Made by a program: the position numbers and the translations under genes. Shown here one piece after another: positions 18,456-25,524 of a DNA stretch of 35,123 nucleotides; within the stretch, counting starts at the first letter, position 1; every line of letters starts with the position of its first letter. Below the pieces are notes generated by a model that had not been told where the DNA came from, ran no database searches, and worked only from the letters and a program-made list of their open reading frames with translations. The DNA lies in the NCBI GenBank assembly GCA_023645945.1, contig JALAIB010000078.1, forward strand, positions 1 through 35,123. Direction: 5' to 3'. Source of the stretch: Diploschistes diacapsis (taxonomy: Eukaryota).

Positions 18456-19102
18456 CCAAAGAGGGCAGGCTTAGGATATAGCAGCTTTGGAAACGTCTGA
18501 GGACCCAAGACAAAATATGGACCTATTCCAAGCCTTGCCTTCCCCAGGATTCAAGCTGCCTCGCCCTTTCACGGACAGACTGTATCAACTTTCGTCGACC
18601 CCTGGCGAGTTCAACGAAACCGAATGCCTACGCAGCCAGGTTTGGCGTTTGATGGACTCACCCCTCTCCTCTTTCTTTCCCTTTATGAGTTTGTTCATGT
18701 TCTTATTTCACGGTCACGCATCGGGTAGTTCACGGTCCGCACGGCGTCTCTTCCCTAGACTGGAACAATACGATTAGCACGGAGATTGCCTGGATACGGG
18801 GATAGAATGGGCATAGCAGGCGACGGCGACTCCACGCAGGAGGTGGATATCCGGCTCAAGCTGAAGAGCGAATTGGTTTTCGGTGTGTACATAGATCGAT
18901 CGAGCCCGCTTTCCGAGAGAGAGCGACGTGGGTGGCAGCATCAGAAATTGTATCAAAGATATCAAACGTACGGTACACGGTGCACACACACGTCACTGAC
19001 TGCAACTGCTCTTCACTCGGCCAAGCTACCAAGCCTCCACCGCACAGCACCACACCACACCGCACCAACAACCTATCGTTTCCCACCACTCGCTCAATCC
19101 AC

Positions 19103-21129
19103 TCAGTCAATCTCCAACGGCTCATACACCACCCCCTTCTCCCTCAGCGCGCTCTCCACAACCTCCATGCCCGCCAAAACCTCCTCCTCCCCCCACCTCC
19201 TCCCCACAACCTGCACGCCCACCGGCAGGCCCTGCATCTTGGCGGCATCGTACAAGCCCCAGGCGCCCCTCGCCACGCCACTCAAGCGGCCCACGTCGAA
19301 GGCCTCGTCGACGGCGTCGGCGGCGGCATCGACCCTGGTGACGGGCAGCACGCCGGCGGCATAGTCGAGCAGGTTCCACAGAAAGGTGTAGCCGCAGGCG
19401 GCGACGGCGTGGCGCATGCCGGCGTGCGGCACGGCGGGCGTGGCGAAGGGCGGGCAGACGAGCAGGTCGAGGCGGGCGCGGTCGCGCCACCAGGCGTGCC
19501 AGGCGGCGCGGTACGCCTCGCGGCGCGCGACGAGCGCCCACTGCTGCGCGACGCTGTGCGCGCCGAAGCGCCGCAGCAGCCCCGCCCACACGGGGTCGCG
19601 CCGCACGTAGCGCACGTACAGGTAGTGCACGTAGCGCAAGATGCGGGGCAGGGAGGCGTACAGCGAGAGCTGCGCGGCGCCCGGGTCCGAGCGCTCGAAC
19701 GTGCGGAAGGGCCCGAGGAAGGTGGCGCAGCCGTCGGCGTTGAGCAGGGTCGAGGCCAGTTGGAGCCCCAGGTAGGGCGAGGGCGGCGTGCATGGGGAGC
19801 TGCCGGCTGAAGCGGACGAGGAGGAGAAGGAGGAGAGGGCGGGCGGAGGCGTGATTTCGATCAGGTCGTGGCCCTGGGCGGAGAGCGCGGAGGACACGAG
19901 GTGCAGGGCCCGGGCTACGGCGGGGGTGGGGTCGACGACGCCTGGTGGGAAGGAGGATTACGGTTAGTTGTGGTGCGGGGAGGCATGGCGATAGGGGTTT
20001 GAGGAAAGGAGAAGGGAGAAGGAGAAAGGAGAGGGGTTGTACCGTCTGTGCGCATGATGCCGATGCGCAGGCGCGATTTCTTCTTGATGGCTTGATAGTC
20101 GTCCTCGCGCCACGGGATCGGATGCACCGTGTGGTCGTACCGCTCGGGCTTCATGCCCCAGATGGCCTTTGAGAAGTACACCAGATCGTCCAGCGTCCTC
20201 GCCATAGGGCTGGCGACGGCCAGCACCCCCTCCTGCCCGGCCATGCTCGTGCTGAGACCCATCTTGGGCCAGCGGCCCGTGGAACAGCGCAGGGCGTAGA
20301 TCCCGCTGAAGTGGGCGGGGGCGCGGACGCTGCCGGCCACGTCGGTACCGATACCGATCCGTCCGCCGAGGGCTAGGAGGGCTGCTTCGCCGCCCGTGGA
20401 GCCGCCGGGAGAGTAGGCAGAGTTGTGTGGGTTACTGCAGCGGCCCCAGACGTCGTTGGTGGATTCAAAGGAGAGGAGGGTTATGGGGAGGGCGGTCTTG
20501 ACGTAAGGAACAGCGCCTGCGGGAGTGCTTCAGCAACGCAATGCAATGGCGTTGCAGTCAAAGAGCCGGGGGAAAAGGGGCATGAAATGAAGCCATAGGT
20601 AAACACAGGAAAGACGAAGCGTACCAGCATCCTTAAGCAGCTTCACAAGCGTCCCGTCCTTGTCCGCGGGCTTGCCCACGTTGCGCGAGTAGCCCACTGT
20701 CGTGTCAAAACCTTTGACGACGGCGGTGTCCTTTAGGGAGACCGGGATGCCAGCCAGAGGTCCTTTGAGGTCAACCTCGTTCTCAGCCCAAGATTCGGCC
20801 TCGGGGAGCAACACTTCTGTCAGGCAATTGGTCTTCTCGTGCGCTTTCACAGCAACCTTGCTGTAAGCGTGGAGAACATCGACGGGCCTGACAGCGCCTT
20901 TATGGACGTCTTGCACTAGTTCCGCAATGGGCTTCTTGATCGTCTCCCGCTCCCAGAGGGTAAAGGGGCCTTTGTAGGAGACTGAAAGCTGCTCGATGCG
21001 AGTAGCTCGCTCTGCTTGCTTGCGGTGACTGCGGGACAGTTAGTGAGAACGGCATAGAGGTGACTGAGGCACCTGCCATGCTCGGAGATGATCGAAGTAG
21101 TCGAAGGGCGGCAGCAGGTTGGCGTCCAT
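19103..21129 (-). CDS. Amidase-signature family enzyme (acetamidase/FAAH-like); exons 21129-21077, 21028-20625, 20516-20043, 19941-19103
   Basis: GPLAGIPVSLKD (catalytic Lys), SPGGSTGGE, GIGTDVAGSVRAPAHFSG (catalytic Ser) and GLPVGVQVVG. The first intron needs a GC donor. Confidence 0.9.
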
Positions 21130-22385
21130 CTTCTTTCAGTCAACTCATGAAATGAAAGCTAGCAATGGCCAGTACAATGTACACAATGTACATGAAGTGA
21201 TCGACCCCTCAACACAGCTACAGCTTTCCAACCGTGTCAAAGGTCAACTGTTAGCACGCGACAAAGATAAGGTGGGTCAAGCCGCGCACTGAAAGCTTAT
21301 GCGCTAATAATTAGATATGTAGATAGTAGCGCCGCTTATACTCGCCTTTCAACGGTATACTACCTGCTTCGCGTCTTTTCGCAACGTAGCGCTTTCACGG
21401 CTTGACGCCTTCGTTGACAGCCTGCTCAATGTCCAGCTTGCCACGAGGCTTGGCTGTAGGCTACTTCTGATATCGACTTCTTAGCCTTCTACGGCCACTA
21501 CATGCAGCTCAAAGCTTCGACCTAGCTTCATCGTTTAGAGTGCCTGCTCTGTCTCTCCAACCAGTGGCAAAGCGCGATTACGAAAAAGCTGGCAGTATTG
21601 ACTTCGATATCGTGGCCATGTTGATTCTGCTCGTGGCCTGAGGCTCGAGGAATGAAATGATACTACAGACGCTTTGCTAACAAACAGCGCATGCAGCTCT
21701 TGATACGATACTACCAAGTGGGATTGTACTTTCTGTACTATACTACATGTTCACAATTTTTTGGTTACGGAAAGCGCGAAGTTGGATAAAACCAATTTGC
21801 TAGTGGATTCGGTATGGATGCTTTATTGGGCCGCTGTATGTTATGAGTTCTCCATGTACATGGTCAATACCTGCACAAGAGCAAGAAGAAAGATGTTACT
21901 TAGAATCGCAACCTGCTACTAGAGAGATCTGGGTATAGTCATCACTTTCTTTGTTCTGCATAAATTCAGCACAAGGACGCTGCGATGTGTTGCTCATTTT
22001 CTGTTCCTGCAGCCATGAGCGCACATCTTCAAGTGCTGTACAGTATTACAGCTAGGTTGTCTGCACTTTTCCGCTCCAATTCCTGCACTTCGGCTTTTAA
22101 TCTTGGTTCTTCAATCGTGCGTTTTGTTTCGTCCTTCAACGTTTGGTTAAAGAACCCGTAACTAGTTCAAGTTATAGTAGTGTCGTTATCACAGATCGCA
22201 GAACAAAGGATGTGTTCCCGTACCTTACGAGGTGCTGCATCTGCTTTCGTCGAAGCTTCGAAACTTGCTCTCATGGATACGGAATTTCTCAACTCTGCAG
22301 CTTTCCATAACTTTTCATCTTCTCACTGGGAAGCTCCATCCTAGGGAGTGAGTCTATAGAAGGCGTGGAGTCCATCTATCTTAAA

Positions 22386-25024
22386 ATGCTTTTCGTTCCC
22401 AAGTGTGTATTGCTCTGCGTGCTGTTTCGATTTTCTGCATTATCCCAATATGTCCCGTCAATAAGCAAAGAAACCACACAAATGGGTGTCAAGGCTGCTT
22501 CGAAAGCGAATTGCAACGTTACCGTTGGATTGAACCAAACCCTAACGCTATATAGTACGCCAGACTGCAGCGAAAAGGAGAGAAACTTGGCCCACCCAAT
22601 TACTACGCATCGACACCGGCAAACACGACTTTTCAAGCGATCAAAATGTCTCGCCAGGGCTCCGACAGCGAACAATTGCTCTTTTCTGCCCTTGGTCCTG
22701 CTGTGGGAACATATTGGCACGAGAGGAGCAATCCATTACAGGCCATGTATGGGAGTTACCCGTCGTACTGCGGTATAAACGAGTTAAATCTGACCTTCCA
22801 GAGCGTCAGCCCATTTACTCCCAAAAATACGAGCGACTTGCACTCAGCTTGTAGGCAACTCGACTATGGTGAGTGATTTCAAGTTGTTTGTTCAGATGCG
22901 ATTGAGCTGATGTGTAATGCGAATCCTAGACCTGCGTAATGATCCAGCTACAGGGTATGTGTCCGGACGACAGGGCAGGCTGGCCCGTCTTTCCCGATTG
23001 CAGCGACACCAATGCTTCCGCTACAAACTGCGCCACGCAATCCAGCATATACAACGCTATGAATTATCATGTTGTTGGTGGAACAGAAATTCAATCGTGG
23101 AATTCCTCCCAGGCCTGGCTTTGGCGTGCTGCGGACGAGATCCAAATTCTTGCTACCCTAGAAGCTCAAGAGATGCGGGCCTATGGAAGCACAAATACTA
23201 CGAACCTAAATACCACCACCATCGATACGAAAGTGATGCACGGCATTGACAAGCCACCGTCTGAGACGAGCTCCCCAGTTCAAGCTGAAGCAAGCCTCAC
23301 AGCTCAAGCTACTGCTTATGGAGCTAAAAGAGGCTCCATCAAAACGGCTCTAGCAGATACTGTACCCAATGGTCCCGGCGACCCAGATCCTGCAGGCAAT
23401 AACCCCACATTTGATGACTCTGCAAACGATGATGCTACAGACAATCATCTCATAGAGCCAATCATTGACGTCGTAGTGAGCCTCTACAATCTTACTAACG
23501 AGCAAGGCAGCTCTCAAGAAACCAGCTCCGTAGCCATGCAAGCCCAGGATATCCCCAGTGTCACCTCAAGTTTCCCGCACCCTAAGTGTGATGACCATCC
23601 TCATCACCCCAGGAGTTTAAGCATGCGCTCGATCTCTGGGACTCCAACAAGCGTCAGTGTGACGCCGCTGGATGATCCGGGCCACACTTTCACTCCGCCA
23701 CCTGGCCTTGACATCAGACAGCCCCAACAGACCAGCCGGACCTCTCATCACTGAAGAACCGTACACGACTCTGTCGCTCCTAAGCAAGAAACCTCCGCCG
23801 TGGGGGCCCAAAATTCACATCAGAGAGCCTGGTGGCAGACCAGCCGGATCCCTTATCACTGACGAACCATACACAACCCCACCGTTCCCAAGCACTCGAC
23901 CTCCGCCATGGGGACCTAACATTCACATCAGGCATGCCGATCCCATGAGTCTGCCTTCGGCCAATGATTCCGCTGATTGGGGAGGTAGTTGTTCCACCAC
24001 TTGCAGAGGAACTTGAGACTATCATGAAAGACGCCTTGTCTTCTCTGCCCGCGGCTATAGAGTCGCGGATGGGTATGCAAGCCTGGCAGGTGACCTCTGC
24101 TCCCAACGCTACGTCCGTCTCGGCACCGCCGAATTCATAGACCACAGCTTCTGCGCTTTCCACATGGACACAATCTCCGGCCTGGGCGACAGCTTCGAAA
24201 TGGATTTCGGAGTCTTCGTGGGTCTCTTCTTCCACGCGGTCAGCGTGGGCACCGTCTTCTACATGGGACAGCTGGGATCCTTCCTCTGCAGCATGGAATA
24301 AGTGGGCCGAGGCTTCCTCCTGGACTTCATCAGATGCTTGGGCTCCCTCGTCCACCTGGGCTTCGTCCCCTACGTACAACTTGACGGCTTCCACATACTG
24401 GACCACAAAGGGAGCCTCTTCCCGCCAACCCCTCCTACACCTCCACCGCCAACGCCAACGCCGTCGGCGCCTCGTCCCCTTCCTTCGCCAACGCCTCCGT
24501 AGCCAGTGCAAGCCCATCAAGCCACCTCCTCTACAGACTCCGGCACGACAAGCACCGACACCATCACCATCACCGTCACAAGGACAAGCAGCACCACCGC
24601 CCCCCTCATAGCCGCCGCTTCCGCGACTTCTACAGCCACAGGAGACCCCGACGATGGCGAGATAAGCCACAACCTCATCTCCGAAAGAATGTGCGCTCGC
24701 CGCCGACTCGTCCTGCCACAAGCGCAACAAAAAGGCAGGAAGGAAACAACAACCTAGCACACAGAGCGGGCCAAGGTCAAAGGCAAGAAAGAACTGCGAT
24801 CCAGCCACGGACTCGGGGTTGTGCCGCTCAGCCTCCACGCCCGAGCAGAGGGACGCCACGGTCCTGGGAGGATCCACGGACCCACCGGAACCGGCCCGGC
24901 GGCAACCTCGCCAACGCAGAGTGTCCGCCGGGCTCGGACTTTGGCGTGTGTGAAGGGGACGAACGAGAGGAACGAGACGGTGGCGGAGATGGTGGTGCCG
25001 GATGACGAGGGGCATGGGCCTTGA
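22386..25024 (+). pseudogene. Disrupted gene for a secreted, S/T-rich repeat protein of roughly 830 codons
   Basis: Signal-peptide-like start MLFVPKCVLLCVLFRFSALS; two well-formed introns (22747-22801, 22869-22929). Protein-like text is continuous only with a -1 shift near 22576, +1 shifts near 23725, 23960, 24423, 24520, 24686, 24897 and 24958, and read-through of TAG 24138-24140. Confidence 0.65.
23711..23932 (+). repeat. 108-nt (36-codon) tandem duplication inside the disrupted gene
   Basis: cagaccagccgga starts at 23728 and 23836; acatcag starts at 23711, 23817 and 23925. Copies read RPAGPLITEEPYTT...PPPWGPKIHIR and RPAGSLITDEPYTT...PPPWGPNIHIR. Confidence 0.9.
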
Positions 25025-25524
25025 GCGTAGAGTAGGGAGTTTTGTTGTTAGGGTTGGGATTGGGAGTGGTGCAGAGGTGTTCAGTGCAGCGGAATGTCAA
25101 GTATTTACTCGGCGCTATGTGATACAGTTGGGTCCAATCATGACTATACCAATAAAAGCGGTTTCGGGTGGATTGGCATTGGCCTGTGGATTATCTCTTG
25201 CAGCGAGAGAATTTTCTCAACCTTCAGTGAGATCCTCCAGGGCGCCTTTTCATAGCAGACTGCAGCCACCGAAGCAAGAACATGGCGGGTATTGCAGTCA
25301 TGTTATGTACGAAGGAACCGTATAAATAGCGGTTACGACCGACCAACCAACCATGATAGCCATTGCCCCCAGGCAACTGTCACAGCAACAAAAAAGCCCC
25401 GATGCCCAAACCCCATGGTGCGTATACAATGGATACATAAATATATGAAAAGATATCCCGCCCGTATCTGTGCCCGTCCCCAAGTGATCGCTGGAGCTGG
25501 CTCTTCAGAAGGCGGAGGTCATCT

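Follow-up and report, generated by a model that had tools for sequence, protein, structure and literature searches.

A gene on the forward strand of a fungal contig from Diploschistes diacapsis (JALAIB010000078.1) appears to change its reading frame repeatedly in one direction, and the question it raises is what produced these steps. The stretch analysed, 35,123 nucleotides in full length, is referred to here as the window, and the gene occupies positions ~22386-25005. The original prediction was of seven consecutive +1 steps, each at a short run extended by one base, in an otherwise well-preserved gene. A different account is favoured by our comparison of the window with a ~97% identical relative (X2) and a second relative (X3). 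With a probability of roughly 0.7, the gene in the window's strain would be a lineage-specific, decaying pseudogene, damaged by ordinary slippage at short runs.

Gene layout and coding strand

The gene consists of a conserved, cysteine-containing N-terminal domain followed by a long, repetitive tail rich in Ser, Thr, Pro and Trp (Table 1), and it is predicted to encode a serine/threonine-rich protein of the secreted type. Tandem repeats of 108 bp and hexamers were detected in the tail by TRF; the match of run X4 to the window was a single 31-letter piece, which fell on a hexamer repeat. The short runs at all seven predicted sites are present (C4 at 23723-26, GG at 23959-60, C3 at 24421-23, AA at 24519-20, A3 at 24684-86, C3 at 24895-97 and G4 at 24955-58), and the three-frame translation contains the peptide texts quoted for them.

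Table 1. Features of the locus, with positions in the window and forward frames designated +mod0, +mod1 and +mod2
Feature	Positions	Strand	Description
5' exon(s)	22386-22868	+	ATG at 22386; hydrophobic, signal-peptide-like start MLFVPKCVLLCVLFRFSAL; +mod2 text from ~22571 (translations)
TT run	22838-22839	+	Single T in X2 (depth 89.8 of 89.8)
61-nt intron	22869-22929	+	GTGAGT..CTGAT..TAG; recovered by control intron scan
Conserved N-terminal domain and first Ser/Thr-rich stretch	22930-23722	+	+mod1; homologue matches
C4 run (site 1)	23723-23726	+	C3 in both X2 and X3
108-bp tandem repeat, 1.9 copies (RPAGxLITxEPYTT..PPPWGPxIHIR)	23728-23931	+	+mod2; TRF, 79% matches
Ambiguous step, +mod2 to +mod0 (site 2)	23949-24006	+	Extra G in G4 run 23979-82 (G3 in X2), or weak 58-nt intron
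In-frame TAG in Trp/Ser-rich segment	24138-24140	+	In X2, 24139 A>G gives TGG; preceding codon TTA for TCA (24136 C>T)
Trp/Ser-rich segment (SxxW-type repeats)	24141-24420	+	+mod0; two AWAPSSTW copies
C3 run (site 3), step +mod0 to +mod1	24421-24423	+	C2 in X2; codon log-odds
CC (site 4, true place), step +mod1 to +mod2	24503-24504	+	Single C in X2; directly after +mod2 stop at 24500-02
Thr/Ser-rich segment	24505-24757	+	+mod2; ends at TAG 24755-57, the stop of the frame continuous in X2
A3 run (site 5)	24684-24686	+	No difference here among those listed for X2; step plausible from text only (ECALAADSSC)
3' end, no demonstrable frame; sites 6 (24895-97) and 7 (24955-58)	24758-25005	+	X2 comparison, codon log-odds
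438-codon open frame	23780-25096	-	ATG at 25015, 411 aa; Arg/Trp/Cys-rich except for one acidic stretch

For the N-terminal domain, which lies within 22930-23722, six relatives were found with E-values from 9.9e-30 to 6.8e-18, and a tblastn search of the window with these six homologues gave E-values of 5e-40 to 2e-25, all in +mod1 and significant at the N-terminal domain only. Homologue P0003 aligned from TCVM at 22930, also in +mod1, and the invariant positions of the domain alignment include C8, D10, D11, R12, A13, W15, P16, C21, C31 and W54. The homologue ORFs, 235-422 aa long, carry the same domain running into tails of their own, which could not be aligned; the best tblastn matches in the tail (E-values of 7e-4 to 2e-3 with filters off) fell in the predicted frames, but were driven by composition. 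AlphaFold, run on the 7-row alignment, returned a mean pLDDT of 43.4, with values above 70 at about residues 40-85 only. A homologue search with exon 22577-22868 found no relatives, one with the Trp/Ser-rich piece returned 500 candidates of which none reached E <= 0.001, and there were no relatives among 162 pattern matches in JGI metagenome contigs. When nine pieces of the locus, including the antisense ORF, were searched against Pfam, nothing credible was found; the sole match, DUF4964 (E = 0.25), fell short of its cut-off. Peptidase_C1, a lead from the ESM Atlas, was dropped at a best score of 0.89, below a meaningful level. The 271-aa ORF listed in NCBI nr for this contig is a truncated remnant of the broken gene.

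Reading frames were scored with codon-usage log-odds trained on 3937 codons taken from ten long ORFs in the window itself. The best-scoring frames were +mod1 to ~23640, +mod2 at 23685-23910, +mod0 at 23955-24000, +mod1 at 24405-24450 (12.3 and 7.5 at 24405 and 24450) and +mod2 at 24495-24630 (7.3 and 9.9 at 24540 and 24585), and past ~24675 every forward frame scored 3.3 bits or less per 30 codons. By this measure the predicted path through the frames is real as far as ~24686, and beyond that point no forward frame is demonstrable; the frames open at the 3' end are +mod0 at 24687-24951 and +mod1 at 24385-25003. As the window stands, +mod1 ends at a stop at TGA 23752-54.

Across 24045-24315 the best codon score belongs to an antisense frame. 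This conflict is settled for +mod0 because the two AWAPSSTW copies there differ at 6 of 24 nucleotides, all at third positions and synonymous in +mod0, and four residues would be changed in the antisense frame. Between the copies of the 108-bp repeat there are 28 differences, which fall 7/6/15 on +mod2 codon positions 1/2/3 (P = 0.02 for at least 15 of 28). Together with the homologue matches in +mod1 and the codon scores, the synonymous nature, in forward frames, of the changes that separate internal repeat copies identifies the forward strand as the coding strand.

The codon score at 24045-24315 would also speak for a reading that makes the 438-codon antisense frame the functional unit, with the insertions retained for opening it. 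Its length, reached by none of 500 mononucleotide shuffles and by 11 of 3000 codon shuffles, points the same way, as does the shorter longest antisense frame of 254 codons without the four bases. However, this was a post-hoc observation, and outside the acidic stretch the codon score stays close to zero or below it (maximum +2.0, minimum -16.5), in Arg/Trp/Cys-rich text that has no Pfam match. The repeat-copy differences that are synonymous on the forward strand change residues on the other, those of the 108-bp repeat lie on antisense first codon positions, and the indels of X2 would break the frame. We regard this reading as extremely improbable; the antisense frame is a by-product of GC-rich Ser/Thr codons and the frame steps. 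Very little credence is also given to the idea that the insertions are non-neutral, whether they mark the birth of an antisense ORF, in which they turn a sense gene that is dying out into the 438-codon frame, or a locus in locally insertion-prone DNA.

Frame steps compared with two relatives

The comparison with X2 draws on the 40 substitutions listed out of 76, and on the indels listed, to which 21 further entries belong. X2 is without one base at each of 22838, 23722, 23979, 24421 and 24503, and the last four of these bear out four of the seven predicted +1 steps. Sites 1 and 3 lie exactly where they were placed, and sites 2 and 4 are real, but the run that differs is 19 and 17 nt away. The base at site 1 (23722) is missing in both X2 (88.9 of 88.9) and X3 (4.01 of 4.01), and with C3 at this site the repeat alignment brings IRQP-NRPAG into frame with the next repeat, HIREPGGRPAG. 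When the four tail bases are dropped and TGG is read in place of the TAG, the longest forward open frame grows from 274 to 607 codons (22930-24755). The steps at 24686, 24897 and 24958 are unsupported, because the codon statistics are flat past ~24675 and X2 differs from the window at 24755-24960 by mixed indels, namely -1 at 24768, -1 at 24788 (also in X3), -2 at 24820 and, in part of the X2 contigs, +G after 24954. At 24768 and 24820 X3 has the state of the window, so these two differences are real polymorphisms. Record lengths indicate that 18 further letters inserted in X2 would lie in 24821-24888.

The description of the gene as otherwise well preserved is wrong, having overlooked both the in-frame TAG at 24138-40 and the extra T at 22838-39; a single T is needed at the latter for the exon to end in phase 0 at 22868 and to join to TCVMIQLQGMCPDD past the 61-nt intron. 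In all, the independent disabling lesions in the window comprise extra bases at 22838, 23723, 24421 and 24503, possibly another at 23979, and the TAG at 24138. X2 is itself damaged, by a gap of 61 nt at 23530-23590 and by one additional T after 23813, and no fully intact allele was seen among the window and the relatives compared. Among the differences listed, X2 has no other indels in 23591-24820, a result that depends on the handling of tied rows.

Substitution density against X2 rose from 1.6% in the 5' half to 3.0% in the tail and 4.9% downstream, and the 38 listed substitutions on the frame path fell 3/4/3 on codon positions 1/2/3 in the 5' half and 11/10/7 in the tail, small counts in which the lineages are pooled. 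Third positions show no excess among these listed changes, which would fit a relaxation of constraint after the split from X2. Of the 11 small indels listed for the comparison with X2, 9 leave the window with the longer sequence. When the direction of the indels was polarised by frame continuity, and at one site by X3 as well, the four or five private frameshifts were all insertions, with P = 0.03 for five of five at even odds and 0.13 at odds of 2:1.

This uniform direction in the window lineage is what a locally elevated, insertion-biased mutation process on the GC-rich repetitive tail, going beyond the genome-wide slippage spectrum, would produce. A high ratio of indels to substitutions in the tail, where at least 8 listed events and the inferred 18 inserted letters stand against 39 substitutions, is also in keeping with such a process. 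But intergenic DNA next to the gene has a similar density of indels (2 letters in gaps over 366 nt, compared with at least 8 events listed in 23591-24820), and the same tail contains deletions of the X2 lineage (24768 and 24820, where X3 equals the window). The Ser/Thr/Ala-rich tail of the neighbouring DUF7492 gene has no shift. In addition, the window was chosen from many for its pattern, so that a P of 0.03-0.13 is expected somewhere. Of the insertion-biased local process originally suggested, it holds that the extra bases are real differences from two relatives and that the window is longer and out of frame at four or five sites, but with a similar indel density next door no such process is needed, and we consider it very improbable. 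Comparison with orthologues, which had been named as the way to overturn the pattern, showed mixed indel sizes (1, 2, 3, 61 and the inferred 18), and two of the sites have true positions other than those predicted, so that the pattern is in part refuted.

Candidate introns, and possible run-length errors or recoding

Some of the frame steps may instead be small introns with weak signals, a reading that is compatible with a pseudogene at the other sites. Site 2 could be accounted for by 23949-24006 and site 5 by 24691-24757, while the -1 step that the original prediction had put at 22576 could be an intron ending at 22570. For the last of these, the intron is more likely than a frameshift; the frame change near 22576 probably corresponds to a candidate intron ending in the CAG at 22568-70, with a perfect CTAAC (22541-45) 26 nt before the CAG at 22570. 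Ten GT..CTAAC..YAG candidates have a length of 2 modulo 3, seven of them ending at 22570 (for example 22518-22570) and three at 22563.

At site 2, the sequence GTCTGC..CTGAT..CAG (58 nt, GC 0.55) has a length of 1 modulo 3 and lies exactly at the required handover from +mod2 to +mod0, and it contains 4 of the 28 listed substitutions, where 1.9 would be expected, together with one indel. Among the changes listed, X2 retains its GT, AG and branch site, and a non-consensus donor, GTACAA, is used elsewhere in this genome by the amidase intron. If 23949-24006 is an intron, the run difference between X2 and the window at 23979-82 would be neutral. Against this, the substitution cluster is not significant (P = 0.12), the donors GTCTGC, GTGCGC and GTTACC are poor, and with the G3 run of X2 the text reads straight through site 2. 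The candidate at 24691-24757 (67 nt, 58% GC) is without a CTRAY branch site, a scan of 23650-25050 returned no strict-donor candidate with a branch site, and sites 1, 3 and 4 are explained by no intron candidate. We therefore hold weak introns to be a possible but doubtful explanation of these steps. Two further introns were rejected. A second intron at 22955-23003, which would rescue the frame of the window, falls in text that homologues conserve (GMCPDDRA[DG]WP), and use of the TAG at 24138 as an acceptor (donor GTATGC at 24073, 68 nt) would lead into +mod2, although +mod0 is the constrained frame and X2 reads TGG at that codon.

Sequencing platforms make run-length errors that appear as one-base differences at runs, and the extra bases could be such errors in reads or consensus, with the real gene intact. 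It fits this that every differing site is a short run and that the window is so often the longer sequence. However, errors would be expected contig-wide, and the ORFs for amidase, DUF7492, kinase, metallo-beta-lactamase and isochorismatase are clean, including a 68-70% GC exon. Seven of nine flanking ORF pieces match Pfam families in single frames, the DUF7492 gene is one ORF of 536 aa, and the amidase gene, in three pieces on Pfam positions 1-93, 90-248 and 349-445, has a proper intron (GTACAA..CTAAC..CAG) at the one of its two junctions that was checked; the flanking genes are thus intact. The exact 411-aa antisense ORF (23780-25015), crossing six of the seven sites, recurs on an 8936-nt Logan contig, and run X1, the possible source run and labelled lichen metagenome, contained 1.00 of 327 sampled words; these probably all go back to the same reads. 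The runs listed as containing the sequence included no RNA data set. The damage is confined to one gene and includes a substitution to a stop codon, the TAG at 24138, which is not a run error, and X3 agrees with the window at 24768 and 24820. An assembly artefact, one of the explanations first offered, is accordingly unlikely.

Recoding, in which ribosome or polymerase would shift +1 at each site to yield a full-length protein, had been ranked last among the explanations, and that ranking holds. Its sole support is the same direction of all steps together with their location at short runs. Programmed +1 ribosomal frameshifting in fungi (Ty1, Ty3, EST3, ABP140, antizyme) relies in each gene on a single conserved site that has a defined heptamer, and the locus resembles it in having +1 frame changes inside coding sequence but differs in that its sites are several, unconserved and without a motif. 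X2 lacks the shift bases, as X3 does at 23722, and without them reading just continues in one frame; the contexts differ (runs TT, CCCC, GGGG, CCC and CC; CAG CCC CAA, TGG GGA GGT, TCC CGC and GTA GCC AGT) with no motif in common; and a full-length product would further require a way past the in-frame TAG and past the exon junction broken at 22838. We consider recoding the least probable of the readings. A phase-variable contingency locus was also set aside, as the runs are only 2-4 nt long and the lesions several and scattered.

Probable pseudogene decay and its counterparts

In the favoured reading, pseudogene decay, private one-base run extensions relative to X2 would have arisen at 22838-39, 23723-26, 24421-23 and 24503-04, with a further one probable at 23979-82, along with a nonsense change from TGG to TAG at 24138-40. 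We infer that replication slippage at short runs made these changes, that the state of the window is the derived one, and that the changes were neutral, and they may have been kept because the gene was no longer under selection. The first lesion (22838) would already part the start codon from the conserved domain. Several independent lesions, an in-frame relative and intact neighbours are what is seen in unitary pseudogenes, which accumulate slipped-strand one-base indels and nonsense changes; the locus departs from them in that its four or five private frameshifts without exception add a base and that X2 bears different lesions.

The shared direction of the insertions would follow from a small sample and from a bias already known in a filamentous ascomycete, whose run-associated indels are more often insertions than deletions. 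A study of mutation-accumulation lines in Neurospora crassa placed 88 of 96 1-bp indels in homopolymers and reported that insertions in repeats occurred at more than twice the rate of deletions (bioRxiv 10.1101/2022.03.13.484164). The homopolymer rates given there concern runs of at least 5 bp, mostly A:T, whereas the runs here were 1-3 nt long before the change and four of the five are G:C.

The gene product resembles a known class in its signal-peptide-like start, small conserved domain and long low-complexity repeat tail, and differs from it in that no Pfam family matched at the locus. This class comprises fungal proteins, secreted or of the wall, that are rich in Ser/Thr and whose genes contain tandem repeats; length changes in such genes are normally in frame.

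The locus adds another case of already known pseudogene decay, with little beyond housekeeping. It does indicate that long ORFs can mislead, since the antisense ORF here only mirrors the GC-rich, Ser/Thr-rich tail and should not be called a gene, and that, where frame steps in fungal DNA share one direction, weak introns and relatives should be checked before recoding is proposed. It is also a small example of a fast-evolving secreted-protein gene decaying differently in two close lichen- or rock-associated fungal strains, and as such could help studies of gene loss.

Coding strand and frame path

We read this locus, with a probability of roughly 0.7, as a strain-specific pseudogene of a gene for an uncharacterized, secreted-type fungal protein. 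The gene begins at ATG 22386 (+), whose translation has a hydrophobic, signal-peptide-like N-terminus. The original prediction traced seven consecutive +1 frame steps through its downstream part (at 23723-23726, 23960, 24423, 24520, 24686, 24897 and 24958); all seven runs are present at these positions, and the peptide texts quoted for the path are readable in translation. Three independent lines of evidence establish that the + strand is coding along this path up to about 24686. Codon-usage log-odds, trained on 3937 codons from ten long ORFs of the window, favored +mod1 (one of the three + strand frames, +mod0 to +mod2), then +mod2 from 23685, +mod0 from 23955, +mod1 at 24405-24450 and +mod2 at 24495-24630; past about 24675, no + frame exceeded 3.3 bits per 30 codons. 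In the Trp/Ser-rich segment, codon usage preferred the antisense frame. The 28 differences between the two copies of a 108-bp tandem repeat were distributed 7/6/15 over the +mod2 codon positions (P = 0.02 for at least 15). The two AWAPSSTW copies of the Trp/Ser-rich segment nevertheless point to the + strand: of their 24 nt, 6 differ, every one at a third position and synonymous in +mod0, whereas on the minus strand these differences alter four residues. The tail, the repetitive 3' part of the gene, also holds two hexamer microsatellites, (CCAACG)3.3 at 24443-24462 and (CACCAT)3.5 at 24559-24579, the second of which is all that a 31-letter contig of another sequencing run (X4) matches.

A single -1 step had been proposed upstream, at 22576, and is more simply explained, without any deletion, by an intron ending at CAG 22570. 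Judged from its signals, this intron is probable, with 22518-22570 as a candidate span (CAG at 22568-22570): a perfect CTAAC at 22541-22545, 26 nt upstream of CAG 22570, would serve as branch point, and several weak donors give a length mod 3 of 2.

Frameshifts of the window compared with its relatives

Over 22300-25400, the window was compared with contigs from two other sequencing runs, that of a relative (X2, depth about 89) sharing 0.36 of sampled words, from which we estimate about 97% identity, and a rock metagenome with a second relative (X3, depth 3-4).

Features of the gene and lesions seen against X2 and X3
Feature	Position	Strand	Detail
Intron	22869-22929	+	61 nt, GTGAGT..CTGAT..TAG
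One base fewer in X2	22838	+	TT run
One base fewer in X2 and X3	23722	+	C4 run, first predicted step
One base fewer in X2	23979	+	G4 run, near second predicted step
One base fewer in X2	24421	+	C3 run, third predicted step
One base fewer in X2	24503	+	CC, near fourth predicted step
In-frame TAG of the window, Trp/Ser-rich segment	24138-24140	+	TGG in X2 (A>G at 24139)

The first and third predicted steps were placed exactly; the second and fourth are real, but the runs chosen for them were off by 19 and 17 nt. At the fifth, no X2 difference occurs among the indels listed, and a 67-nt candidate intron at 24691-24757, without a branch site, offers an alternative. The last two gained no support, the X2 indels there being mixed in size and direction. 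Three steps are thus firmly confirmed and three unsupported. The second holds up as a change of frame that an intron may account for: a weak 58-nt candidate at 23949-24006 (GTCTGC..CTGAT..CAG, length mod 3 = 1) has its signals retained in X2. Of the 28 substitutions listed, 4 fall within this candidate, against 1.9 expected (P = 0.12). We consider an insertion and an intron about equally likely here.

Two lesions had been overlooked, the in-frame TAG and an extra T at 22838-22839. The latter is a further +1 lesion that breaks the phase of the exon ahead of the 61-nt intron; only a single T at 22838 lets that exon reach its end at 22868 in phase 0, so that it continues into the conserved text past the intron. 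A second intron at 22955-23003 was considered as a frame rescue and rejected, since this stretch is conserved in homologues. When the four extra tail bases were dropped by script and TGG was read, the longest + open frame grew from 274 to 607 codons (22930-24755).

Toward the 3' end, X2 differed from the window by -1 (24768), -1 (24788, X3 too), -2 (24820) and, in some contigs, +G after 24954. X3 has the window state at 24768 and 24820, so the differences there represent genuine polymorphisms, varied in size and in direction. Record lengths imply 18 further inserted letters in X2, absent among the indels listed. The X2 contigs break at 24955-24958, with one extra G in part (depth 116.8/192.4), and the run length seems to vary within that sample.

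An assembly artefact is an unlikely source of the extra bases, because a lichen metagenome run that may be the source of the window (X1) contains every one of the 327 words sampled from the locus, the 411-aa antisense ORF spanning 23780-25015 recurs exactly on an 8936-nt Logan contig, one of the lesions is a base substitution, and the remainder of the window's contig is clean. Recoding at the steps has a next to negligible probability, since the relatives lack the extra bases and simply read on in one frame, the site contexts have no motif in common, and the stop codon and broken exon junction would need bypass too.

Insertion bias and the antisense open frame

All of the frameshifts private to the window lineage, four or five as polarized by frame continuity, are insertions. 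Five insertions in five have a chance of 0.03 if the odds are even and 0.13 if they are 2:1, for a window selected from many for this pattern. A study of N. crassa mutation-accumulation lines reports 88 of 96 one-base indels in homopolymers and, in repeats, insertions at over double the frequency of deletions, although its homopolymer rates concern runs of at least 5 bp, longer than those here (bioRxiv 10.1101/2022.03.13.484164). Given these chances, the known bias and the selection of the window, the locally insertion-biased process originally suggested is unnecessary. Neighboring genes are intact: a 68-70% GC island (19001-20500) in a window of about 50% GC coincides with the amidase gene's 3' exon, which reads through, the one amidase junction examined is an intron (GTACAA..CTAAC..CAG), and the DUF7492 gene is a single 536-aa ORF, its tail similarly Ser/Thr/Ala-rich. 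Protein kinase, metallo-beta-lactamase and isochorismatase genes also lie in the window, which by this gene content and its short introns with GTGAGT..CTGAT..TAG signals resembles the DNA of a filamentous ascomycete.

An open frame of 438 codons runs along the minus strand (23780-25096; 411 aa from ATG 25015), covering the decayed tail almost exactly, and stops number 13 and 20 in the other two minus frames over this interval. No mononucleotide shuffle out of 500 reached this length, against 11 of 3000 codon shuffles; without the four tail bases, the frame would be about 250 codons long. That the private insertions were non-neutral, turning a dying gene into an antisense open frame, or reflect locally insertion-prone DNA, is nevertheless highly improbable. 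The acidic, well-scoring antisense stretch arises because a GNN-rich antisense frame mirrors NCN (Ser/Pro/Thr/Ala) sense codons; outside it the codon score is near zero or negative, and both repeat-copy tests (108-bp repeat, AWAPSSTW) favor the + strand. We treat the antisense frame as a by-product.

Protein family and probable decay of the gene

The conserved domain, encoded from 22930 (+) downstream of the 61-nt intron (TCVMIQLQGMCPDDRAGWPVFPDC...), has six relatives (E 9.9e-30 to 6.8e-18; 36-52% identity) among 1.84 billion representatives scanned in full with HMMER, none of them matching past query residue 154. These are unnamed ORFs of 121-422 aa on ENA and Logan contigs, with Ser/Thr-rich tails unalignable with one another or with the window. 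No piece of the locus matched Pfam, and the AlphaFold model is poor (mean pLDDT 43.4). We therefore assign the protein to an uncharacterized fungal family in which a conserved domain of small size precedes a tail that evolves fast and is probably disordered. A 271-aa ORF (22939-23754, +), stopping 10 codons past the first frame step, is entered in NCBI and NCBI nr among the proteins of this 35,123-nt contig; the deposited record thus apparently counts the truncated remnant as a gene.

The codon-position split of substitutions against X2 (38 of 40 listed, 76 in total) was 3/4/3 for the 5' half and 11/10/7 for the tail, and the recent substitutions listed show no sign of constraint. Their density climbs outward, from 1.6% in the 5' half to 3.0% in the tail and 4.9% downstream, and the tail and adjoining intergenic DNA have comparable indel densities. 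Window-to-X2 substitutions over 22300-25400 are asymmetric (G>A 20 and C>T 13 versus A>G 11 and T>C 8), and at differing sites the window copy is richer in GC.

The pseudogene is an ordinary one. X2 lacks 61 nt (23530-23590), whose GT..TG ends exclude an intron; 222 nt beyond the gap, after 23813, it carries an additional T (net -60). A T>C change at 23781 eliminates a stop in the frame X2 would then read, and the stops at 23618 and 23660 seem to be retained. The X2 copy is damaged as well; this group seems able to do without the gene, whose decay takes a different course in each lineage.
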